Positions 1 to 43,711 of a DNA stretch of 64,000 bases are shown here, piece by piece. Position 1 is the first letter of the stretch; each line of letters opens with the position of its first letter. The notes beneath the pieces were generated by a model. It worked only from the letters and a program-made list of their open reading frames with translations. It searched no databases and was not told the origin of the DNA. The DNA comes from a virus: positions 5,560 to 69,559 of IMG/VR virus record IMGVR_UViG_3300009545_000004. The stretch is one strand, 5' to 3'. A program made the position numbers and the translations under genes.

Positions 1-1446
1 CACGTGAACAACGTGGTCGGCAACCTGACGATGGCGCACTTCGCGGGCGTGTCCTACCACCGCGGCGACAAGTACCTCGGCGCGCTGAAGGACTTCGTGA
101 TGAAGGGGCCCGGCCTGCAGGAGGCGCGCGACGCGGGCCTCTTCGTCGGGACGCACAGCGACGCCGAGCTGGTGCGGGAGCTGCCCAAGGAGCTGCGCGC
201 GCTCGTGGCGCAGCAGCGCGGCGTGCTCAAGATCGGCGCCGACCTGGCATTCAACATCGCGACGCTCGGCCTCAAGCGCCCGCTGACCGCGCTCTACGGC
301 GCCGAGGACACCTTCTTCAAGTACATGCTCTACAAGGACGCCCGTGGTCGCGGCATGGCACCGGGCGATGCGGTCAACCACGCCGAGCGCTACATCTTCA
401 CCTACGACGACTTGCCGAGCGGCGCGCGCGCGGTCAGCAACACCTTCGTGCCGTTCTTCTCGTGGACGTACAAGGCGGTGCCCGCGCTGCTGCACACCGC
501 GCTCGCGCACCCGGCGCGCTTTGCCGGGCCGATCGCCGTGACCTGGCTGGCCAACGCCATCGGCTACGCGCTGGCGGCCGGCGGCGACGACGACGACTGG
601 TACGAGAAGCTGAAGAAGGCCATCAGCGACCCGGCCTATCGCGCCAAGATGCAGGCGCTGCATGACCAGGAACAGAAGGGCCTGCCGCCCTGGATGCGCC
701 ACAAGTCGGCGCTGTTCGAGACGTATGCGAACGGCATCCCGAAGGCCGCGACGCCGACGACGAGCCTGTTCGATCGCGACAGCGTGATCCGCCTGGGCAA
801 GGACAGCGTGACGCACTTCCCTATGTTCATCGACGTGGGCCGGATGATCCCGGGCGGCGACCTGTTCGACGTGGCGCCGCACGCCGGGGGCATCTCCTTC
901 CCGGCGCCGATCACGCCGAGCAATCCGCTCTTCACGATCGGCTCGGGCATGTTCGGCAACAAGGACTTGTGGACCGGCAAGCCCATCGTGGACGCCAACG
1001 ACACCGGCTGGGAGAAGACCGAGAAGTACGCCGACTGGATCTGGCGCAACACGGCGCCGGCCATCGCGATCGGCGGCCGGCACTGGCAGACCGCGATGAA
1101 CGCGGCGGCGCATGCAGCCGGCGGCACGGCCAACTGGATGCCGACCTTCATGTCCGACAAGTACACCGGTATCCAGAAGAGCGGCCTGCCCGCGCAGCCG
1201 AGCCTCGCCGCTGCCAACATCATGGGCATCAAGATCAACCCGCAGGACTTGCAGCGCTCCGAGCAGATCGACCAGGCCATGAAGCAGAAGGCGATCCGCG
1301 ACATCCTGGCGGAGATGCGCGCGCTCAAGCGCCAGGAGAGCATCGGCGCCGTGCGGCCGGCCGAGGTGCAGCGCGAGATGGTGAAGGCGCGCGAGAAGAT
1401 CCAGAACGTGCAACGGGGGCTGACGGTCAGCGGCGACGAGCGCTGA
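1..1446 (+). CDS. C-terminal part of giant internal virion (polyvalent/DarB-like) protein, 5'-truncated by the window
   Basis: Frame is open from base 1. FVPFFSW...P motif and helical C-terminus resemble LPD38-like ends of large polyvalent proteins. Directly precedes the lysis genes, and the giant ORF at 56933 runs off the other end. Confidence 0.6.
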   Translation, partial: HVNNVVGNLTMAHFAGVSYHRGDKYLGALKDFVMKGPGLQEARDAGLFVGTHSDAELVRELPKELRALVAQQRGVLKIGADLAFNIATLGLKRPLTALYGAEDTFFKYMLYKDARGRGMAPGDAVNHAERYIFTYDDLPSGARAVSNTFVPFFSWTYKAVPALLHTALAHPARFAGPIAVTWLANAIGYALAAGGDDDDWYEKLKKAISDPAYRAKMQALHDQEQKGLPPWMRHKSALFETYANGIPKAATPTTSLFDRDSVIRLGKDSVTHFPMFIDVGRMIPGGDLFDVAPHAGGISFPAPITPSNPLFTIGSGMFGNKDLWTGKPIVDANDTGWEKTEKYADWIWRNTAPAIAIGGRHWQTAMNAAAHAAGGTANWMPTFMSDKYTGIQKSGLPAQPSLAAANIMGIKINPQDLQRSEQIDQAMKQKAIRDILAEMRALKRQESIGAVRPAEVQREMVKAREKIQNVQRGLTVSGDER

Positions 1447-4456: not shown

Positions 4457-5404
4457 ATGCAAGACCCGGTATTTACACAAAATGCGCTTCGAGCATTCGA
4501 CGACTTGCAGCATGAGCTAGCAATCTTCATGGATAGCGTGGCCACATGGTTTCAAACGAATCCGCGGTTGTCACGGGGTTCATTACCGATTGTCCATTCT
4601 GTCAAAAAACGAATGAAGGACAGGGAGCATCTTCGAGAAAAAATAGAGAGAAAGTCTTCGCCAAATCGAATAATCAATGAGAGGTCTCTGTCAAATGAGG
4701 TGACAGACCTTACCGGAGTCCGAGTGCTGCATATTCACCAAGATCAAATGAGTCAGATTCACGCAGAGATTATGAATAAGGTGAATGTAAAAAACGACTG
4801 GCACCTCCATGAACAGCCTCGTGCATACACTTGGGATCAAGAATCTAGCGAATTTTTTCGCACGCTGGATTTGGACGTGGCTCTTAAACCTAGTTCATAT
4901 ACAAGTGTTCACTATGTGGTACGTCCCAAGCCTGATTCGAATATCTGCTGCGAAATTCAGGTAAGAACTTTGTTTGAGGAAGTCTGGGGCGAGGTGGATC
5001 ACGTCCTGAATTATCCCCAAGAAACATTGATTGTCGCGTGCCGGGAGCAACTGCGCGTCTTGGCAAAAGTTGTAGGCGCTGGCACGCGGCTGGTGGATTC
5101 GATATTCCGCAGCATCCCTCCTGCACAGGTAGCCGTGAATCCCGAAGTTCCAGCCGTAGACGCGGGAAGACCAGCTGAGCCGACAGGGGAGTCGGGTGCT
5201 TCCGTTGAAGTGCCCGCAGCGCCTGTTCAAGTGATCCTTCCCACCGTCCATGACCCGGCAGGAGCGGTCGCGGCACGGCCTGCTGAGCTGGAAATGGAGA
5301 AGCCTGACACCGACAAAGTACATGCAACGCCCGGAGCGACACCTCCGGCGGGCGCCGGGCATGTTGTCGACCAGGTCGACGCGGACGTTTCACGCAATGT
5401 CTAA
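4457..5404 (+). CDS. RelA/SpoT-domain small alarmone synthetase-like nucleotidyltransferase with Pro/Ala-rich tail
   Basis: SVKKRMKD..LREKIERK, TDLTGVRVL, YTSVHYVV, EIQVRTLFEEVWGEVDH; RBS GAGGA; 9 bp after parA. Confidence 0.88.
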   Translation: MQDPVFTQNALRAFDDLQHELAIFMDSVATWFQTNPRLSRGSLPIVHSVKKRMKDREHLREKIERKSSPNRIINERSLSNEVTDLTGVRVLHIHQDQMSQIHAEIMNKVNVKNDWHLHEQPRAYTWDQESSEFFRTLDLDVALKPSSYTSVHYVVRPKPDSNICCEIQVRTLFEEVWGEVDHVLNYPQETLIVACREQLRVLAKVVGAGTRLVDSIFRSIPPAQVAVNPEVPAVDAGRPAEPTGESGASVEVPAAPVQVILPTVHDPAGAVAARPAELEMEKPDTDKVHATPGATPPAGAGHVVDQVDADVSRNV

Positions 5405-35097: not shown

Positions 35098-36588
35098 ATG
35101 CTCACCGAAGGCCAGCGCGTCGAGTACAGCTACAAGCCGCAGGGGCCGGTGCTCGCGAAGTACCTCGCGAACCGCGATCAGCGGGCCTTCATCTGCGGCC
35201 CGCTCGGCTCTTCGAAGACCAACGCCTCGTGCTGGAAGGCGTTTCGCGTCATGTGCGACCAAAAGCCCGATCGCGAGGGCATTCGGCGCACGCGCCTGGT
35301 CGCGATCCGCAACACCTACGGCGACTTGCTCTCGACGACGGCGAAGGACTGGCTGGAGATGTTCGAGCCGCTCGGCCGCTGGGTCGCGGGAGGCCGCGAG
35401 CCGCCGCAGCACACGCTCGACTTCTTCCTGCCACCCGAGAAGCCCGGCGACAAGCCGACGCGCGTGCTGTCCGAGCTGATCTTCCTTGCGCTCGATCGCG
35501 AAGAGCATGTGCGCAAGCTCCGCGGCATGCAGCTCACCGCGGCGATGCTGTCCGAGGCCAAGGAGCTGCCGTTCGCGGTGCTGCAGATGGTCGACTTGCG
35601 CATCGGCCGCTACCCGCAGGGCGAAATCGAGCCGACCTGGTACGGCATCTTCGGCGACACGAACGCGCCCGACACCGATCACTGGTACTACCGGCTCGCC
35701 GAAGAGCGCCGGCCCGAGGGGTGGACCTTCTTCAAGCAGCCCGGCGGCCTGATCCGCGAGTCGCGCGAGGCGCCGTGGCGCGAGAACCCGGACGCCGAGA
35801 ACCTGCGCAACCTGCCGCCCGGCTACTACGTCAAGGGCGCGCAGGGCAAGGACGAGGACTGGATTCTCGTCAATCTCGCCAACGAGTACGGCTTCGTCGC
35901 GGACGGCAAACCGGTCTATCCGGACTATCGCGACTCGGTGATGTGCAAGCCCTTCGAGCTGGTGAAGGAGGTGGGCATCTACGTCGGACTCGACTTCGGA
36001 CTGACGCCCGCGGCGCTCATCGGACAGCAGGGATTCACCGGCCAATGGCGCTTCCGCCACGAGCTGGTGACCGAGAGCACTGGCATCCTGCGCTTCGCCG
36101 ACGAGCTGAACCTCTTCATGGCGCGCCACTACCAGGGCTGGCCGATCCTCGGCATCTTCGGCGACCCGGCCGGCGGCCAGCGCCAGGCCGGCGACGTGGA
36201 CGAGCGCACGACGTTCCAGCTCCTCGGCCACAAGGGCATCTACGCGACTCCGGCGCCCGGGAACAACGACTTCGTGCTGCGCGCCGAGGCCTTCAGCGCG
36301 CCGATGAAGCGGTTCATCGACGGCGAGCCCGGCATGCTGATCCATCCGGACTGCCGCGTGACCCGCAAGGGCCTGCAGGGCGGCTACGCCTACAAGCGCA
36401 TCAAGGTCGCCAACTCCGATAGGTGGCGCGATCTGCCCGACAAGAACCAGTATTCGCACCCCTGCGAAGCCGGCCAGTACCTGGTGCTCGGCGCCGGCGA
36501 GGGGGTGACGGTGCTGACCAGCACGACAAACACGCGCGACCGGGACATCGACGGCTTTCGCCGCCGCATGGGTTACGCGACTCACTGA
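35098..36588 (+). CDS. terL: Terminase large subunit
   Basis: ICGPLGSSKT, LSEAKE, GDTNAP, GLDFGLTP, GDPAG, SHPCEAGQY. Confidence 0.92.
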   Translation: MLTEGQRVEYSYKPQGPVLAKYLANRDQRAFICGPLGSSKTNASCWKAFRVMCDQKPDREGIRRTRLVAIRNTYGDLLSTTAKDWLEMFEPLGRWVAGGREPPQHTLDFFLPPEKPGDKPTRVLSELIFLALDREEHVRKLRGMQLTAAMLSEAKELPFAVLQMVDLRIGRYPQGEIEPTWYGIFGDTNAPDTDHWYYRLAEERRPEGWTFFKQPGGLIRESREAPWRENPDAENLRNLPPGYYVKGAQGKDEDWILVNLANEYGFVADGKPVYPDYRDSVMCKPFELVKEVGIYVGLDFGLTPAALIGQQGFTGQWRFRHELVTESTGILRFADELNLFMARHYQGWPILGIFGDPAGGQRQAGDVDERTTFQLLGHKGIYATPAPGNNDFVLRAEAFSAPMKRFIDGEPGMLIHPDCRVTRKGLQGGYAYKRIKVANSDRWRDLPDKNQYSHPCEAGQYLVLGAGEGVTVLTSTTNTRDRDIDGFRRRMGYATH

Positions 36589-36596
36589 GGTCTGCC

Positions 36597-38843
36597 ATGG
36601 CCAAAATGCTTATTCCATCGAACGTGAGCACCATCACGCCGATCAAGGACGACACGCCCGCCTCGTCGCGCGGCATGGACGAGGCGGGCGCAGGCGCCTT
36701 CAACCTCACGCGGCTGATGGCCCTGGTGTCGGACTGCGAAGACCAGCCGAATTGGCGCGAGCGCGCCGACCTGGCCGCCGCCTATGTCGACGGCAAGCAG
36801 TTCACGCCCGAGCAGATGGACACCGCGCGCAAGGAAGGCCTCGGCGAGGTGCGGCCGACTAACCTGATCGGCCGTGTGATCCGCTCGGTGTGCGGCACCG
36901 AGGCGAAGACGCGCACCGACGTGAAGATCGAATCGGACGACGACGACATCGAGGACGTGTCCGACGTGCTCAACCTGCGCATGAAGGAGGCGCAGCGCGA
37001 GACGTATGCCGACATGGCGGTCTCGAACGCCTATTTCGGCCAGGCGACGACCGGCATCGGCTGGGTGGAGGTCGCGCGCAACGCCGATCCGCTCGACTAC
37101 CCGTACCGGGTGAAAGACATCCATCGCTCCGAGATGTGGTGGGACTGGAAAGACCCGGACTTGGTGCTGCGCGGCGCGCGCTGGGTCGCGCGCAAGCGCT
37201 GGGGCGATCTGGACGAACTCGAAGCCGCGATGCCGCGCTTCAAGGAGCTGTTTCGCATGATGGCCAACGGCTGGAGCGGCTTCATGTGGGACAACACCCT
37301 CGACGAGACGATGATCCAGCAGTACGACGCCGACCAGAGGTATCGCAACTACCGCGGCCGGGCCGAGTGGATCGACGGCGCGAGGAAGCGCGTCAAGCTC
37401 TACGAGATTTGGTACAAGATTCCGGCCGACGCGCTGGTCATCAGCTTCTCGCCGACGCGCCGCATGCTGCTCGATCAGCGCAACCCGGCGCACATGCTCG
37501 CTATCAGCCAGGGCCGCGCCATGGTGAGCCGCTCGATCACGCGCCAGGTGCGCATGGCGCTCTTCGCCGGGCCGCATCGGCTGGTCGACATTGGCACGAA
37601 GCGGCGCAATTTCCCCTACGTGCCGTTCTTCGCCTACCGCGACGACGCCGACCAGTCGCCCTATGGACTGGTGGAGGGCATGATCGGCCCGCAGGACGGC
37701 TACAACAAGCGCCGCCTGCGCATCGAGTGGATGCTGAAGGCACGCCAGATCCAGGTCGACAACGACGCGCTCGACACGAAGGCCAACTCCCTCGCCGAGA
37801 TTGCCGACGCGGTGATGCGGCCCGACTTGACGATCGTGCTCGACGCGAACCGAAAGAATCGCGACGGCATCAAGATCGGCGCCGACTTGCAGCTTCAGAA
37901 GGAGCAGATCGACGTGATGCAGGATGACAAGCAGCTCATCCAGGACGTGCCGGGCGTCTACGGCTCGCAGCTCGGCCAGGCCGCCTCGGGCGTCACCTCT
38001 GGTATCGCGAACTCGCTGCTGATCGAACAGGGCGCGGTCGCGATGGGCGACCTGAACGACAACTACCGGCACTCGCGCCGCATGGTGTTCGAGAACCTGC
38101 TCGACTTGATCGTCGAAGACTGGTCGATGCCGAACATGCAGGCCAAGATCGGCCGCGGCAGCTCGCGCCGCGTGGTGACGCTCAACACGATCGATCCGCA
38201 GACCGGCGACATGGTGAACAACGTGGCGGACGCGCCGATGCGCGTCGGCCTCGGCGACGTGCCGAACACGCCCAGCTACCGCATGCAGCAGCAGCAGAAC
38301 ATCGCGACCATCGTGCAGGCGCTCGCGCAGGCCTCGCCGCAGGCCGCCGCGGTGCTCGCGCCGAGCTTCATCGAGCAGACCGACTTGCCCGATCGCATGG
38401 AGCGCGCCGACGACGTGCGCCACGCCCTCGGCCTGCCGACTTCCGGCGACCGCGCGCAGCAGAAGCAGCAGCAGGCAGTCGCCGAGCAACAGGCGCAGGA
38501 AAAAGCCGCGATGGACAAGCAGGCCGCGATGCAGCAGCTCGAAGCGCAGGCTGCGAACATCGAGAAGACGCGCAGCGACACCGAGCTGAACAAGGCCAAG
38601 GTGATCCAGCTCGGCCACGGCATGGCGACCGACTCGATCGCGACCGCCGACAGCGGGTTGCAGGGCCACGCGCAGACTGCCGTCGCGGCGCAGCAGGCTA
38701 ACGCGCTGGCGGCGCAGCAGGCCGCCGACGAGGCCGATCGCTCGATCATCGATGCGCAGAACAAGATGATCGCGGACGCCTTGAACGAGGCCAAGGCGCG
38801 CGGCGTGGCACCCGCCCCCGCGCCTGTTTTCGCTCAGGCGTGA
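36597..38843 (+). CDS. Portal protein (podovirus type)
   Basis: YVDGKQF, PTNLIGRVI, FPYVPF, PYGLV..MIGPQDGYNKR; follows terL. Confidence 0.9.
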   Translation: MAKMLIPSNVSTITPIKDDTPASSRGMDEAGAGAFNLTRLMALVSDCEDQPNWRERADLAAAYVDGKQFTPEQMDTARKEGLGEVRPTNLIGRVIRSVCGTEAKTRTDVKIESDDDDIEDVSDVLNLRMKEAQRETYADMAVSNAYFGQATTGIGWVEVARNADPLDYPYRVKDIHRSEMWWDWKDPDLVLRGARWVARKRWGDLDELEAAMPRFKELFRMMANGWSGFMWDNTLDETMIQQYDADQRYRNYRGRAEWIDGARKRVKLYEIWYKIPADALVISFSPTRRMLLDQRNPAHMLAISQGRAMVSRSITRQVRMALFAGPHRLVDIGTKRRNFPYVPFFAYRDDADQSPYGLVEGMIGPQDGYNKRRLRIEWMLKARQIQVDNDALDTKANSLAEIADAVMRPDLTIVLDANRKNRDGIKIGADLQLQKEQIDVMQDDKQLIQDVPGVYGSQLGQAASGVTSGIANSLLIEQGAVAMGDLNDNYRHSRRMVFENLLDLIVEDWSMPNMQAKIGRGSSRRVVTLNTIDPQTGDMVNNVADAPMRVGLGDVPNTPSYRMQQQQNIATIVQALAQASPQAAAVLAPSFIEQTDLPDRMERADDVRHALGLPTSGDRAQQKQQQAVAEQQAQEKAAMDKQAAMQQLEAQAANIEKTRSDTELNKAKVIQLGHGMATDSIATADSGLQGHAQTAVAAQQANALAAQQAADEADRSIIDAQNKMIADALNEAKARGVAPAPAPVFAQA

Positions 38844-38905
38844 GCAAGCAGGCATGAACGCGCCGCCGGACACGTCTTCGCTGCCGTTCCGCTTTTTGCG
38901 GCGCC

Positions 38906-39134
38906 GAAAAGACACGAGCCCCGCACAGAGGAGGGTGTGCGGGGCTCGGCTCCCATGCGTTTGGCCGCGATTCATCGGCCTTCGTGCCCCTTCGGCGGTC
39001 CCCCTACGCTGGGTGAAGGGCAAGTACACCGTCAAGCACGACGGCGGGCACGCGGACACCCGCATTGTGCCTCGGCGGCGGGGGCGTAATCTCCTACGCG
39101 GGCCTTCATCGACGCGCAGAACCGGATGATCGCC
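38906..39134 (-). ncRNA. Element B, copy 1: putative sRNA with anti-SD-loop terminator, plus portal 3'-end copy
   Basis: Diverged repeat of 39715-39948 with covarying hairpin. Confidence 0.5.
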
Positions 39135-39289
39135 AAGTCGTTTGGCAGGTCCCTTCGCAAGGCGACATCGCCAGCCGCATACTTTCAGGCGACCGACGGC
39201 GACCGTAGTGCGGGCTGACTCATCGGCAGGGCGACTTCAGGCGGTTCAGCTCTGGGCCGTGAGCGAGAAACCCGAAGTCTGCCCCAGCC

Positions 39290-39526
39290 GGTCTGGGGCT
39301 GCCGTGCGACCTCGAGATCGGGCGGCAGTCGATCTTCATGGTCAACGGGTTCGCGGGGCAGCTCCTGAAGCTCGACCAGAACGGCAAGGTGATTGCGGTG
39401 CTCGGCAAGCCCGGGGCTGCGCTCGGCGAGTTCGGCGAAGCGCACATGGTGGCCGTGAGTCCGAAGGGCGACGTCTACGTGGCCGACACCGTGAACGCAA
39501 CGCTGACGAAGTTCGTCGCGAAATAG
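39290..39526 (+). pseudogene. 3' fragment of a bacterial NHL-repeat beta-propeller gene
   Basis: GKPG...GEFGEAHMVAVSPKGDVYVADTVN. Confidence 0.7.
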
Positions 39527-39584
39527 CGAGAGCGTTAGACGACGAACCGGCGCGCGAGCTTCGACGCGGTGGTGCTGGACACGA

Positions 39585-39690
39585 CTTGGCTCAGGGGCGA
39601 ACTCCGCGACGCGATGCACGCCATCCTGCGCGGCGGCGCCGGGCACAACCTGCTGATCCGAGCGCACCTGAGGGTGCATCTGTTGGTCCT
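39585..39690 (+). pseudogene. C-terminal fragment of an IS5-family transposase
   Basis: WLRGELRDAMHAIL..GAGHNL.IRAHLRV resembles the IS5 Tnp C-terminus. Confidence 0.55.
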
Positions 39691-39714
39691 TTTCGGTAGG
39701 CCATTGCTGTGCCT

Positions 39715-39948
39715 GAAAGGCACGGGCCCCAGCACGGAGGAGGTTCGTGCGGGGCCCGGCCCCGTCGTGCGGCCTGCCGCTACGAGTCAGCAGACCTTCG
39801 TGCTCCTTCGGCGGTCCCCTTACGACGGGAGAGGGGCAAGTGCACCGTGGTGATCCAACCCCGGCGAGCACGCAGACAGCATCCATTGTGCGTTGGCGGG
39901 GATGCAATTCTGCTACTCGGGCCGTCATCGCGCCAGAACCTGGTGATC
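39715..39948 (-). ncRNA. Element B, copy 2
   Basis: Diverged repeat of 38906-39134. Confidence 0.5.
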
Positions 39949-40149
39949 CTCCGGCGTAGGTGGGCATCCGCGTGGCGATGTCGCTGATTCCGCCCTTGGC
40001 AGATGGCAGAGTGAAGAAGATGGCAAGCGCCGTCTCGCAAGCTACATACAGCCTGTATACAGCCTGTATAAAACTCTGCCTGTACGGTTCTCCATCACAG
40101 AGTCAAATCGTGTAGAATTGCGCCATGATCACAGTCAGGAGCGACTTCC

Positions 40150-40626
40150 ATGAGCACAAGAATTACCGTTGGCGGAGTCGTGATAGAGCTGGACTCCGTG
40201 GCATATCTTGGCGAGGCGATGAAGCAACTTGCTCCATACTTGTCGTTGCCAACTGTGGCCCGCGCGACAGAGGCTGCACCGGCACCGGCACCAGCACCAG
40301 CACCAGCACCTGCACCTGCACCCGCTGAGTCGACCAGGCAGAGCGCACTGAAACTCTTGCGCCTTCTGCGAGATTACCGCGCATCCGGCGGCGCACGGTC
40401 CGAAGAAGTAATGAAAGTCCTTGGCGCAGCGCACGCTAAGGGCATCGGCTCAAAAATGACACCGGTTAACGCCTACCTCCAGCTTCTGGATTTTGAAGTG
40501 GCAGAGGTCTACAAGAACGACAGGGATGCCACTGGAAACAGGATGTGGATCCCGGGCGAGAGGTTTGACGAAGCGCTACAAAAGATCTCCGATTCGAGAG
40601 CCGAAGACATTGGCGATCTTCTTTGA
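40150..40626 (+). CDS. Moron gene, hypothetical with (PA)n linker
   Basis: Own -10 TAGAAT and AGGAG RBS; lower GC. Confidence 0.7.
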   Translation: MSTRITVGGVVIELDSVAYLGEAMKQLAPYLSLPTVARATEAAPAPAPAPAPAPAPAPAESTRQSALKLLRLLRDYRASGGARSEEVMKVLGAAHAKGIGSKMTPVNAYLQLLDFEVAEVYKNDRDATGNRMWIPGERFDEALQKISDSRAEDIGDLL

Positions 40627-40660
40627 AAGGAGGGAGCGCCACTACGTGGGCGCAATAAAC

Positions 40661-40697
40661 GACAAAGGCCGCCGGTTATGAGCCAGCGGCCTTGGTC
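40661..40697 (-). ncRNA. Hairpin with tRNA(CAU)-type anticodon loop CUCAUAA; terminator of a possible antisense sRNA
   Basis: Minus strand AAGGCCGCTGG-CTCATAA-CCGGCGGCCTT then U-rich tail. Confidence 0.5.
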
Positions 40698-40807
40698 TGG
40701 TTCTGAGGCTGAGCCACCATCACCATGTCTTGGTCGACTTGGGCAGTGTACACCTGCATGATGGGCAGCCCCGCCTCAGTGTTCTCCTAGCACTTCGAGG
40801 GCTTGAT

Positions 40808-40933
40808 ATGCACTTCTGCGCATATCCCAGGAGCGTTCACGTTCGCGACTACGTTCGATTCCGGTACGGCCGGCTTGAGCACGTTTGCGAGCATTGCCGG
40901 TCGCTTCCCGGCCAACTGACCTTGTTCGGTTGA
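40808..40933 (+). CDS. 41-aa basic small protein
   Basis: GAGGG RBS; VHVRDYVRFRYGRLEHVCEHCRSLP; own terminator. Confidence 0.6.
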   Translation: MHFCAYPRSVHVRDYVRFRYGRLEHVCEHCRSLPGQLTLFG

Positions 40934-40948
40934 TCATTCCATGACCGC

Positions 40949-40984
40949 GGCCCCGGGCGTCAGATGCCGGGGCCTTTTCTTCTT
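40949..40984 (+). terminator. Intrinsic terminator
   Basis: GGCCCCGG...CCGGGGCC-TTTTCTTCTT. Confidence 0.8.
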
Positions 40985-41295
40985 GCCGCCACGCCCGATC
41001 GAAAGTGCCATTGCTCGTCGGCATTCATGCCACGATGTGCTCGACTCCGCCCTTCAGGCCGGCGTACTGGCTTGCGGCTTGAGCGGGTTACGGTCTTGTC
41101 CGCCGTCGACTCGTAAGCGACGGTATGGGTTTCGCGAACTGATTGAGATGCCGTTTCTTTGTCGAGCCATCCCCGGTCGACGTTGAGAAGGGCGTAGCCG
41201 CGCATGCACCTCTGGCGCCAGCATGCCGACCAAGGGACACAGGCATGCGACCTCTCGCGCCGGCCGCGACTCCTGCATATCCTTTCTGCAATAGC

Positions 41296-41439
41296 CCAGT
41301 GCAATTTGGTCGCTCTATTGCACTGGCGAGTGAGAGAGCGACAGCCAGTTGCGAGGACTCGTCCCACTCGCGACTGCGGATGCGGGGGACGGTGGGCCGC
41401 AGGGCCCTCGGGACGCCACCCGTATGAATGGCCGAGGGC
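41296..41439 (+). promoter_or_regulatory. Structured leader of scaffold gene (tandem hairpins / possible pseudoknots)
   Basis: Two 10-bp stems with 11-nt loops complementary to downstream sequence; third stem abuts the RBS. Confidence 0.55.
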
Positions 41440-41450
41440 AAGGATCAGCG

Positions 41451-42377
41451 ATGGAAGACTCACGAGCCGAGTTCAACAAGGACGACATGGAGCTGCTGGC
41501 CCAGGCGCAACGGGAAACCGATGCGCAAGAGGCGGCGGCTGCTGCGGCGGCCCAACAAGCCGAAGGGACCGATCCGCCAGCGCCTGCGCCGGCACCGACC
41601 CCTGCTGAAGCACCCGCTGCCCCGGCGCCAGCCCCGGCACCTGCTGATGCACCTGCAGCCCCTGCAGCACCGGCCCCGGCACCCGCCGAGGCGAAGGATG
41701 GTGGCTCGCCCAAGGCTGCGCTTCGCGCTGGCCGGCAAGCCGAACGCCGTCTGCGTCAGGAGAACGAGGCTTTGCGCCGGCAACTGGAAGCGAGCAGCGC
41801 GGCTGCGACCGACCAGACGCCCAAGGAGCCCGACGAAACCCAGCTCAACGACGTTCGAGAGTACGCGCCAGAAGTCGGAGCGCACATCGAGCGGCAGAAA
41901 GCCGAGATTGAACGACTCCGCGCACTCGTGCCGCCCGCGCCACCGCCAGCCAAGGCCTACGTGCCTGACGTGCTGGACGATACGGTGCAGGAAGCTGTGG
42001 ACGAGAACGAAACGCTGTCCGACTGGCATACGTTGGCTGAACACCGCGACAAGTGGGAACAAGCCGTCGCGTTCGACACCGCACTTCGGCAAAAACCGGA
42101 GTGGAAGGATCGACCGCTGAAGGATCGTCTCGCTGCAGTCGTCGCGCTTGTGCAGACACCGCTTGCAGACCCCTCGAAGGCACCGGCTCCGGCCCCTGCC
42201 CTCGATGCGGCCCAACGGGCCATCGCCGCCGCCGCTGCTTCCCCTGCAGCGCCGGTGACGCTCGGGGACTTGAGGGGCGGGGCCACACCCGCATCCGTCT
42301 CTCCCATGGACCCCTACCAGATGGTGAAGGCAGGCAAAACCGACGAGGAGATCATGGCCTCGCTGCCCCAGCTCTGA
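41451..42377 (+). CDS. Scaffolding protein
   Basis: Pro/Ala-rich, coiled coil, immediately upstream of capsid gene. Confidence 0.75.
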   Translation: MEDSRAEFNKDDMELLAQAQRETDAQEAAAAAAAQQAEGTDPPAPAPAPTPAEAPAAPAPAPAPADAPAAPAAPAPAPAEAKDGGSPKAALRAGRQAERRLRQENEALRRQLEASSAAATDQTPKEPDETQLNDVREYAPEVGAHIERQKAEIERLRALVPPAPPPAKAYVPDVLDDTVQEAVDENETLSDWHTLAEHRDKWEQAVAFDTALRQKPEWKDRPLKDRLAAVVALVQTPLADPSKAPAPAPALDAAQRAIAAAAASPAAPVTLGDLRGGATPASVSPMDPYQMVKAGKTDEEIMASLPQL

Positions 42378-42412: not shown

Positions 42413-43711
42413 ATGTCAGTGACCACCGTTGCAAGCGGCGCAGGAATCGCCGTCAAGCAGTACAGCAAGGCCCTGTCGGCAATGGCCGTGCGCCAGCCGA
42501 CCCCGCTCAAGTCCCTCATGGGCCCGATGCCCAGCGAGGACGCCGCGCTGCGCAAGCTGCGGCAGCAGAGCACCATCGAAATGCCCGTCGTGCGTGTCGA
42601 CGAGCTGTCGAAAGGCCCGGGTGACACCGTGCAAGTCGACTGCGCACACGTGGTGAAGCTGCGCCCGATCATGGGCGACCAGAACGCCGAAGGCAAAGGC
42701 GCTGCGCTGAAGTACAGCTCGCAGGACATCAAGATCGACATGGCGACGCTCCCGGTGTCGGCTGGCGGCAAGATGACTCAGCAGCGAACGAGCCACTCGA
42801 TGCGCCAGAACGCCCTGATGCAGCTCAAGGGCGGCATGCCGCGCTTTCGGTGGCAGCGGGCGCTCGCGATGTTGGCGGGCGCCCGCGGCGTGCAGGACGG
42901 CACCGACTGGATCCTTCCGCTCGCGACCGACCCCGAGTTCGCCGAGATGATGATCAACAGCGTCAAGGCACCCACCTACAACCGCCACTGGGTGGTGTCG
43001 GGCGCGAGCCTGGTGCAGGGCGGCCAGCAGCTCGGCGCGATCGTCTCGACGGACACGATGAAGCTCGGCGTGATCGACGAGTTCGCGGCCATCTGGGCCG
43101 AGATGAGCACGCGCATGGCGCCCGTCTCGATCCCGGGCGACCCGGCGGCCGGCGATGACCCGATCAAGGGCATCCTGTTCGTCGACGAACTGGTGTGGAA
43201 CGACCTGGTGACCGACACCAGTGCCACCAACCTGCGCACGTTCGAGACGAACGCGATGAAGCGGGCCAACTACGGCGACCTGAAGAGCCATCCGCTCTTC
43301 TCGGGCGAGCCGATCATGTGGCGCAACATCCTGGTCCGCAAGATGAGCACCGCCGTGCGCTTCAACGCGAGCGACAGCGTGAACATCGTGACCGCGGCCA
43401 ACCGGCTGACGGGCACCGAGAGCGCGCAAGTGGTCAACGCGGCCATCACCGCGAACTACCAGGTGTCGCGCATGCTGTTCCTGGGCGCCCAGGCGCTCGC
43501 CTCGGCGTCGGGCGCGAACCAGACGAGCGAAGAGACGTACTCGCTGCTGGAGCACCGCACGAACTTCGACCGCAACCTGGAGTTCGCGGGCGAAATCATC
43601 GGCTCGGAGCAAAAGCTGCGGTGGTCGCTGCCGAACTTCAACGGCGACCTGGAGCCCACCGACTTCGGCGTGGCCGTGATCGACACCGTGGTGCGCAAAC
43701 GCATCGTCTGA
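42413..43711 (+). CDS. Major capsid protein, N4-gp56/DUF4043 type
   Basis: ELSKGPGDTV, PIMGD..AEGKG, GGKMTQQRT, HPLFSGE..MWRNILVRK. Confidence 0.9.
   Translation: MSVTTVASGAGIAVKQYSKALSAMAVRQPTPLKSLMGPMPSEDAALRKLRQQSTIEMPVVRVDELSKGPGDTVQVDCAHVVKLRPIMGDQNAEGKGAALKYSSQDIKIDMATLPVSAGGKMTQQRTSHSMRQNALMQLKGGMPRFRWQRALAMLAGARGVQDGTDWILPLATDPEFAEMMINSVKAPTYNRHWVVSGASLVQGGQQLGAIVSTDTMKLGVIDEFAAIWAEMSTRMAPVSIPGDPAAGDDPIKGILFVDELVWNDLVTDTSATNLRTFETNAMKRANYGDLKSHPLFSGEPIMWRNILVRKMSTAVRFNASDSVNIVTAANRLTGTESAQVVNAAITANYQVSRMLFLGAQALASASGANQTSEETYSLLEHRTNFDRNLEFAGEIIGSEQKLRWSLPNFNGDLEPTDFGVAVIDTVVRKRIV

Follow-up and report, generated by a model that had tools for sequence, protein, structure and literature searches.

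A small-protein cassette of temperate phages with a predicted cis-antisense RNA across its leader

Introduction

A conserved unit consisting of a leader, a small open reading frame (ORF) and a terminator occupies positions 40627-40984 of the phage DNA analysed here, a 64-kb stretch (the window) of the 69,559-bp virus record IMGVR_UViG_3300009545_000004. The limits of the unit are drawn by comparison, since similarity to the nearest relatives starts just past the upstream stop codon and spans both leader and ORF. On balance, we regard this unit as probably a cassette in which a small protein gene is combined with a cis-antisense small RNA (sRNA) of approximately 80-100 nt lying across its leader, in a layout resembling that of type I toxin-antitoxin loci. 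That the sRNA is transcribed and acts on the peptide is inferred, as would be any toxicity of the latter. A sequence-only reading of the stretch had proposed such an antisense layout, and comparative evidence favours it, namely covariation in the stem of a hairpin within the leader, an asymmetry of its G.U pairs between the two strands, and a recurring promoter motif on the antisense strand.

The small protein and its family

The 41-codon ORF is, by the sequence evidence, a real and conserved gene under purifying selection. The reading frame that contains it (67 residues) matches positions 20-45 of the 47-position PHROG 21154 profile through its residues 35-60 (E 1.4e-6), and in 11/11 pairs of loci synonymous differences affect more codons than non-synonymous ones do, as in L005/L006 (10 vs 2), L012/L015 (6 vs 1) and the window with L153 (19 vs 9), where L numbers denote related loci. 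The description of the product as a basic peptide, made before any database search, is borne out: it has an isoelectric point of 9.1, a charge of +2.8 and a grand average of hydropathy (GRAVY) of -0.31, and is hydrophilic and without a hydrophobic segment.

A tblastn search with the peptide, which had been suggested as a check, recovered relatives in 56 phage records comprising Shiga toxin (Stx)-converting and other E. coli phages, Salmonella phage Oslo (gp51) and four P2-like Ralstonia phages. Homologues were found at 31 viral loci, in 17 species genomes and at 42 metagenome loci; the species genomes are mostly those of Burkholderiales, with Psychrobacter and Thiothrix also represented, and range from AT-rich Psychrobacter to GC-rich Burkholderiales. 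Besides PHROG 21154, named homologues are VT2-Sa protein H0092 (UniProt Q9KXF6) and Salmonella phage vB_SosS_Oslo gp51, with 62-66% identity over the core. A ten-member profile searched against 1.84 billion representatives retrieved 376 clusters (counted at 50% identity) at E<=1e-3, of which 27 also pass E<=1e-10; nearly all the clusters are stand-alone proteins of 30-55 residues, and the few that carry a name are called 'hypothetical protein'. The family consensus is K-x-V-H-V-R-x-Y-x-R-x-R-x-G-x-x-E-x-V-C-x-H-x-R-S-x-P, with conserved columns V10, V12, Y15, R17, R19, E24, V26, H29 and R31 among 117 sequences. Because the cysteines vary among family members, a zinc site appears unlikely.

An AlphaFold2 model built with the 117 sequences has four short beta strands and no helix, with a predicted local distance difference test score (pLDDT) of 89.8. 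The best structural match in BFVD was H0092 only (TM 0.65, 62% identity, but E 0.057). Foldseek against the PDB returned nothing at E<=1e-3, its weak top rows being ribosomal chains at E>2; a PDB profile search gave none at E<=10, and a wide VIA-align search found no chain reaching Z>=2. In the ESM Atlas all matches were to unnamed clusters, below 0.9, and named clusters gave none. Pfam, NCBIfam and PADLOC contain no family for the peptide, and a word-indexed protein search with it gave no match.

The core of the peptide also occurs in a very different setting. The motif Y-x-R-x-R-x-G-x-x-E-x-V-x-x-[YH] (PYIRTRRGKFEHVKGY-like), corresponding to profile positions 10-26, is found six times between the domains of P0039, a MuF polyvalent virion protein of 1840 residues with Phage_Mu_F, ART-PolyVal, PolyA_pol (CCA-adding-enzyme-like) and HD domains. 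These repeats have the same core as the peptide but are embedded in a giant protein, by homology or convergence, and could act as linkers, processing sites or binding modules. Neither a description nor a function of the repeated motif was found in the PMC5512222 passages on linkers, hairpins, cleavage and repeats.

A covarying hairpin read from the minus strand

The 11-bp minus-strand hairpin with a CUCAUAA loop and a U-rich tail that had been noted in the leader is present at 40693..40665, where 11 pairs (8 G-C, one G.U) enclose the 7-nt loop CTCATAA and are followed by the tail TGTCGTTTAT. It lies 39 nt past the stop codon of the upstream gene. Taken alone, this hairpin lies within chance, with 6 terminator-like sites in 38500-42000 compared with 2.8 +/- 1.8 in shuffles, and it is regarded as more than chance because it is conserved in related loci. 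There a hairpin lies at the same place, 110-220 nt before the ATG, with different stem sequences.

The sequence-only reading had asked whether such upstream hairpins are conserved with covarying stems, and this is what was found. In alignment A8, which contains ten sequences of the closest leader group (110 cells for the 11 pairs), 85.5% of the cells are paired, compared with 77.3 +/- 2.0 in shuffles (0/500 reach it). The covariation score is 0.38 as against 0.25 in shuffled alignments (again 0/500 reach it) and <=0.15 in slid controls, and 5/11 pairs of the helix have changed on both sides. The pairing is also asymmetric: the minus strand has 94/110 paired cells (21 G.U) and the plus strand 75/110 (2 G.U). 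Both the covariation of the helix and this strand asymmetry are shown by the alignment.

Across the wider family, terminator-like sites were defined as a G-C-closed stem of at least 6 pairs followed by at least 5 T in 9 nt, and were searched for in the interval -320..-20. This rule is a relaxation of a stricter first version, under which A/T pairs consumed the tails and sites were found on the minus strand in 8/22 lineages and on the plus strand in 5/22; the relaxed rule was then tested on new loci. It gives minus-strand sites in 13/22 lineages (1.85 expected) and plus-strand sites in 9/22 (1.17 expected), with three of the nine plus-strand sites being the same hairpin read in both directions (L005, L154 and L169 look bidirectional). 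In a validation set of 18 new leaders, obtained from a metagenome scan and unused in forming the idea, the counts are 10/18 for the minus strand (1.45 expected) and 3/18 for the plus strand (0.89 expected). The T-rich tail of the best hairpin favours the minus strand in 19/26 loci. The hairpin is most likely, from these comparisons, the Rho-independent terminator of a minus-strand sRNA.

The hairpin travels with the peptide gene, whatever gene stands upstream. Among ten loci scanned, the gene directly upstream encodes a Peptidase_M78 protein in 4/10, a DHFR in 1/10, a protein without a family in 3/10 and a protein with a weak, sub-threshold Mrr_N-like match in the remaining 2/10. Since the upstream gene differs among loci while the hairpin stays, the latter would be part of the peptide cassette.

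A separate search of viral contigs with the DNA pattern CCATGTCTTGGNNGAC gave 117 stretches, one of which has the peptide (L121, the same as L006); the others were set aside as chance matches.

The candidate antisense promoter and the predicted small RNA

Promoter motifs of the form TTGnnn-16..18-TAnnnT or TGnTAnnnT were sought between hairpin and ORF in the terminator-bearing lineages. They are found on the minus strand in 14/15 lineages and on the plus strand in 1/15, with ~4 expected per strand; in the validation set the corresponding counts are 17/18 and 9/18 (6.75 expected). The -35/-10 form begins 36-50 nt before the ATG in 8/15 lineages and in 9/18 of the validation set, and its spacer is 17 nt throughout, except at one L187 site. 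The -10 box T-A-n-A-C-T is invariant across 12 aligned sequences apart from its third base, which varies. Conservation of the minus-strand promoter motif is thus shown by the sequence comparison.

The length of the sRNA, predicted from promoter and terminator together, would be ~80-100 nt. Six predicted sRNAs (the window and five relatives) each fold into a 5' hairpin, a middle hairpin and the terminator, with z scores of -3.1 to -6.6, and the predicted fold of the window sRNA reaches -39.3 kcal/mol (z = -5.2). For the window, an RNA of ~85 nt had been proposed to start from a minus-strand TACACT. The box was located (Table 1), and the proposal is upheld as to a predicted body of ~84 nt and motifs that are conserved in relatives; the promoter of the window itself looks decayed. 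The window has CTGCCC in place of the -35 element, with a spacer 5 nt shorter than in its nine aligned relatives (TTGnCC-17-TAnAnT in A8), and because the -35 is lost and the spacer shortened, the antisense promoter of the window appears to have decayed. The window sRNA may be weak or silent, and its hairpin a relic. The window cassette lies in a structural gene block, not near a repressor, and an antisense promoter might be disfavoured among structural genes.

Leader, start codon and a proposed mechanism

The long folded plus-strand leader that had been noted between CTGAGGC and GCCTCAG is recovered in computed folds, in which these arms pair, and they do so in the predicted folds of both strands. 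The region 40627-40990 as a whole folds with z = -3.1. Closer to the gene, a hairpin formed by GATATGC (40805-40811) and GCATATC (40820-40826) buries the AUG, whose probability of being unpaired is 0.01. The AUG is buried (unpaired probability <=0.07) in 7/21 lineages, the window included, compared with ~2.4 expected from shuffles. The codons with which it pairs vary by lineage, and the signal is modest and limited to the Burkholderiales forms.

Taken together, these features are consistent with the following mechanism. The plus strand would carry a gene for a ~40-residue basic, beta-rich protein with its own terminator, as a self-contained temperate-phage cassette, and the minus strand an sRNA gene of ~80-100 nt that lies within the ~180-nt leader and is ended by the hairpin. 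The peptide mRNA probably begins upstream, because the promoter motif is present on the plus strand of the leader in only 1/15 lineages, and would read through the hairpin, which on the plus strand is weaker and without a U tail. The sRNA would match, with full complementarity, the part of the leader ~60-145 nt ahead of the AUG, and its pairing with the leader could block ribosome loading or trigger cleavage, which would turn off the small protein. The sequence of the hairpin loop would have no special role.

Evidence against the proposed antisense RNA

Several results weigh against an antisense RNA, some of them specific to the window. The candidate promoters score just 8/12 against the sigma-70 consensus, and because of this score a generic scan with a 9 of 12 rule lists no such promoter in the window, L156 or L163; generic promoter and terminator scans of L012, L156 and L163 likewise leave the proposed sites unlisted. 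The same kind of scan misses the upstream hairpins of L156 and L163, in which A/T pairs extend the stem and consume the tail. The window is the sole lineage of the 15 without the minus-strand promoter motif, and the minus strand of 40600-41060 has no sigma-70-like match even at 8/12. When the best single hairpin per locus is taken, the energy is lower on the minus strand in 14/26 loci and on the plus strand in 12/26. The relaxed rule finds no minus-strand terminator in 9/22 lineages, and these terminator-less forms include those of E. coli/Salmonella and the Ralstonia phages as well as L009, L011 and L168; for this reason only some members of the family may have the sRNA. On the wide sRNA alignment A6, RNAalifold gives no consensus pairs, the hairpins being out of register, and complementarity between the predicted sRNAs and the translation start is no better than in shuffles (z -0.75 to +1.85). 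The lineages are related, so that lineage counts are not independent events, and none of the RNA sequencing runs checked for the window phage carries it.

Alternative explanations

The cassette could be a true type I toxin-antitoxin module, in which a toxic or growth-arresting mini-protein is held in check by an sRNA antitoxin for prophage stabilisation or abortive infection. This more specific proposal is possible, and we hold it only tentatively. It accommodates the small ORF, the predicted cis-antisense sRNA, the structured leader and the buried AUG, as well as the location of the cassettes on prophages, often beside repressor or ImmA-type genes, and the two paralogous cassettes of L007, an arrangement often seen in type I loci. 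The peptide, however, is unlike most type I toxins in lacking a hydrophobic segment (GRAVY -0.31), which tells against the toxin-antitoxin-like interpretation more generally, and PADLOC gives no match. The window ORF is also intact though its antisense promoter looks decayed, which is awkward unless the ORF is expressed only in lytic growth.

An ordinary terminator or insulator, ending the upstream gene or blocking stray antisense transcription, would require no sRNA and would render the promoter-like motifs incidental. The position of the hairpin 39 nt past the upstream stop codon, the bidirectional appearance of the L005, L154 and L169 hairpins, and the want of a canonical minus-strand promoter in the window or in the generic scans all suit this explanation, and yet the hairpin accompanies the peptide gene even where the upstream gene differs, the minus strand has 21 G.U pairs as against 2 on the plus strand, tails rich in T are biased towards the minus strand (19/26 loci), and the minus-strand promoter motif recurs at a fixed place (8/15 and 9/18 lineages). 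We therefore consider it unlikely, and the preferred reading remains that of an sRNA gene within the leader.

It is very improbable that the ORF is untranslated and that what is conserved is a structured RNA of the plus strand. Leader and ORF do fold well (z = -3.1), and the E. coli copy is unannotated in a RefSeq record, but synonymous changes exceed non-synonymous ones in all 11 pairs, conservation at the amino acid level extends across very different GC contents, the Shine-Dalgarno sequence and start codon are kept, and a confident family fold is predicted.

Least credible is the proposal of the sequence-only reading that the CUCAUAA loop mimics the anticodon loop of tRNA-Met/fMet/Ile2, so that anticodon nucleases would be decoyed by it or would take it as a target: a 7-nt loop with U33, CAU at 34-36 and a purine at 37 is present in 2/9 lineages of the closest group (the window and L172, which fit C-U-CAU-A-N), the loop differs in the other 7/9 and in every more distant lineage, the stem has 11 pairs rather than 5, and the context offers nothing tRNA-like and no Rfam match. 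The loops of the closest group, read on the minus strand, are CTCATAA in the window, CTCATAC in L172, TTCATAACG in L177 and TTCGTAC in L153 and L171, and are unrelated in L175, L178, L005/L006, L154 and L174; in more distant lineages the loops are 4- to 8-nt long and of different sequence. The four lineages with similar loops also have the stem core GCCGCT[AG]G in common, so the likeness of their loops reflects close kinship, and the loop evolves no more slowly than the stem among the nearest relatives. This lack of conservation among homologous loci is the observation that the reading itself had named as counting against the mimic and decoy, and the case illustrates that an anticodon-like hairpin loop means nothing until its conservation is checked.

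Architecture and surroundings of the locus in the window

The features of the locus are collected in Table 1. On the minus strand the main terminator is followed by the small hairpin at 40636-40653 and then by TCCCTCCTTTC, and L153 has an equivalent small hairpin. The plus-strand terminator noted after the peptide gene is present, and a plus-strand terminator-like site within 110 nt past the peptide stop codon is found in 10/22 lineages compared with 0.65 expected. ARAGORN found no tRNA gene in the window, and Rfam gave no family at E<=1 at this locus and nothing in the leaders of 12 related loci.

Table 1. Positions of the cassette features and the upstream gene in the window
Feature	Position	Strand	Basis or comment
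AAGGAGGG block	40627-40634	none	Left cassette edge; onset of similarity to related loci (alignments A3, A4)
Second small hairpin, plus-strand GCGCCAC-TAC-GTGGGCGC	40636-40653	-	Read by eye
Intrinsic-terminator-like hairpin (40665-40693) with T-rich tail (40655-40664)	40655-40693	-	Taken to be the 3' end of the predicted antisense sRNA
Predicted antisense sRNA body, ~84 nt, three stem-loops	40655-40738	-	5' end placed ~7 nt downstream of the -10 box
-10-like box TACACT of candidate antisense promoter	40745-40750	-	Sequence match
Structured leader of peptide mRNA, closed by CTGAGGC (40704-40710) and GCCTCAG (40774-40780)	40704-40780	+	Folding
Translation start region: GAGGG (40797-40801), 6 nt, ATG (40808-40810)	40797-40826	+	Sequence
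41-residue basic protein MHFCAYPRSVHVRDYVRFRYGRLEHVCEHCRSLPGQLTLFG	40808-40933 (TGA 40931-40933)	+	PHROG 21154 member
Intrinsic terminator of peptide mRNA: stem 40949-40974, tail TTTTCTTCTT at 40975-40984	40949-40984	+	Sequence and folding
Upstream 158-residue ORF	40150-40626	+	Orphan protein with (PA)n linker; context, outside the conserved cassette

The virus record has direct terminal repeats. The G+C content of the phage is 66-68%, with a dip to 0.572 at 40001-41000, the stretch that holds the cassette. The structural block around it comprises a P22-type portal gene (36423-38843), a putative scaffold gene (41349-42377, PHROG 479) and a capsid gene (42413-43711); the cassette lies in the portal-to-scaffold gap, which is ~2.5 kb in length and of odd content, including an NHL-repeat fragment. 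A blastn search of 38850-41350 against the phage collection gave no match. A further strong hairpin of terminator-like form follows the portal gene directly, on the minus strand at 38915-38948; it has 13 pairs, and its loop contains CCTCCTC.

The same phage is present, almost unchanged, in DNA contigs of four rhizosphere or root metagenome runs, and no contig in these runs joins across the cassette as a cassette-less variant would. The sole difference inside the cassette is at 40788, where the window has T and all four runs have C. Metagenome contigs break at a (GCACCA/GCACCT)n repeat at 40266-40331, which encodes a Pro-Ala dipeptide run in the 158-residue protein.

For the 158-residue upstream protein no family of Pfam, NCBIfam or PADLOC passes the cut-off; it has a single homologue cluster at 61% identity, and BLASTP gives no alignment between it and the products of the upstream genes of related loci. 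The upstream proteins compared (window 40150-40626; L005:2217-2792; L154:1739-2293; L007:1949-2500; L153:1761-2303) are otherwise unalignable and have a common plan, with a helical N-terminal part, a low-complexity linker and a C-terminal end that is acidic and reads ...D-[DE]-D-L-[AL]; a weak Mrr_N-like winged-helix match within this plan is found in L005 and L154 only. These five proteins may be one fast-evolving family.

Genomic context in relatives

The cassettes of relatives often lie beside repressor or ImmA-type genes, on prophages. In VT2-Sakai and Salmonella phage Oslo the order is cI, an ORF of ~173 residues, the peptide gene and N, with a terminator after the peptide gene. In Ralstonia phage YO034_1 a Peptidase_M78 gene and a neighbouring ORF (a helix-turn-helix protein by eye) stand directly upstream, and in L005 the peptide gene converges on a cI-like repressor gene (read by eye). 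The homologues H0092 and Oslo gp51 are, like the window gene, small ORFs followed by a plus-strand terminator; the enterobacterial homologues differ in their place between cI-orf22 and N and in having no clear minus-strand terminator by the relaxed rule.

The peptide locus is present in 234/5,426 complete E. coli genomes. Its 40-residue product (UniProt H0092 of VT2-Sa) was left unannotated by PGAP in an E. coli O157:H7 RefSeq record (L170, locus 1521-2090), and in NC_000902 an opposite-strand GeneMark ORF is annotated over the H0092 homologue.

Other observations concern single lineages. L007 holds two diverged copies of the peptide gene, at 2666-2776 and 4855-4968, ~2.2 kb apart, and upstream of each copy there is a separate minus-strand terminator with a promoter motif. 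Between L012 (an E. coli phage) and L015 (a Salmonella phage), the loop of the hairpin after orf22, ~125-160 nt before the ATG, is inverted (CCAACTCCCCAGTC in one and its reverse complement in the other) with the stem kept. A 6-codon mini-ORF with a strong AAGGAGG site stands just before the hairpin in L005 (2868-2888), L006 and L154 (MRNWLT, MRGWLT, MLSWYK), and its position holds a small hairpin instead in the window and L153. The 6-codon ORF was rejected as a conserved coding feature, being confined to these three loci, as was a plus-strand ORF beginning MSW, which is open in the window and L005, shortened in L154 and missing in L153.

Relation to known systems and significance

In some type I loci, among them tisB/istR-1 and zorO/orzO, the sRNA pairs with a 5' leader far upstream of a sequestered start. 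Antisense control also operates in the regulatory operons of temperate phages, as with the P22 sar RNA over arc-ant and the lambda OOP RNA over cII. The cassette resembles the first group, of which zorO/orzO is the subject of PMC3919570, in its ORF of fewer than 60 residues, a short sRNA (here predicted) that is encoded in cis or divergently and ends at a terminator of its own, a long and structured leader with the start codon in a hairpin, and a prophage or island location. It differs from that group in that its peptide is basic and beta-rich, not hydrophobic, and in that the predicted sRNA would be fully antisense to the intergenic leader of an apparent operon, with no Rfam relation. With P22 sar and lambda OOP it shares a short antisense RNA (here predicted) with an intrinsic terminator, within an operon and acting on a downstream gene, and relatives' cassettes often adjoin the repressor region; it departs from them in having as its target a 40-residue protein, in an sRNA that would leave the ribosome binding site uncovered, and, in the window, in its place in the structural gene block.

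A cis-antisense sRNA before a small prophage ORF is therefore a known kind of system. What appears to be new is the sRNA itself, which has no Rfam family, the kind of protein involved, and the association of one with the other. An unannotated copy of the peptide gene lies in the cI-N immunity region of Shiga-toxin phages. The phage sRNAs in the available part of PMC4104026 are placed 3' of PR' and stx2, elsewhere than the peptide locus, and the accessible text of the Pas sRNA preprint (10.64898/2026.05.13.724894) does not mention this locus. The strings EHVCEHY, VCEHCRS and LEHVCEH had no match in the papers searched; supplementary tables of small ORFs and sRNAs of enterohaemorrhagic E. coli, outside the search, may list the E. 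coli copy.

A bolder reading, to which we give a minority weight, is that the cassettes constitute a new class of antisense-RNA-controlled module, in which a soluble, arginine-rich beta mini-protein would bind nucleic acid or a host or phage factor. Such a mini-protein could arrest growth, exclude other phages or tune lysogeny, and its core motif recurs in injected MuF polyvalent proteins.

If the antisense cassette is as proposed, it would add an sRNA family without an Rfam entry and would define a widespread small-protein family (376 clusters) that is without annotation in the E. coli O157:H7 RefSeq record examined. With a peptide that is not a membrane peptide in a type-I-like layout, the range of products encoded by such modules would become broader. 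Because the cassette adjoins repressor genes in Stx, Salmonella and Ralstonia phages, it may also bear on lysogeny control or superinfection exclusion in these phages.

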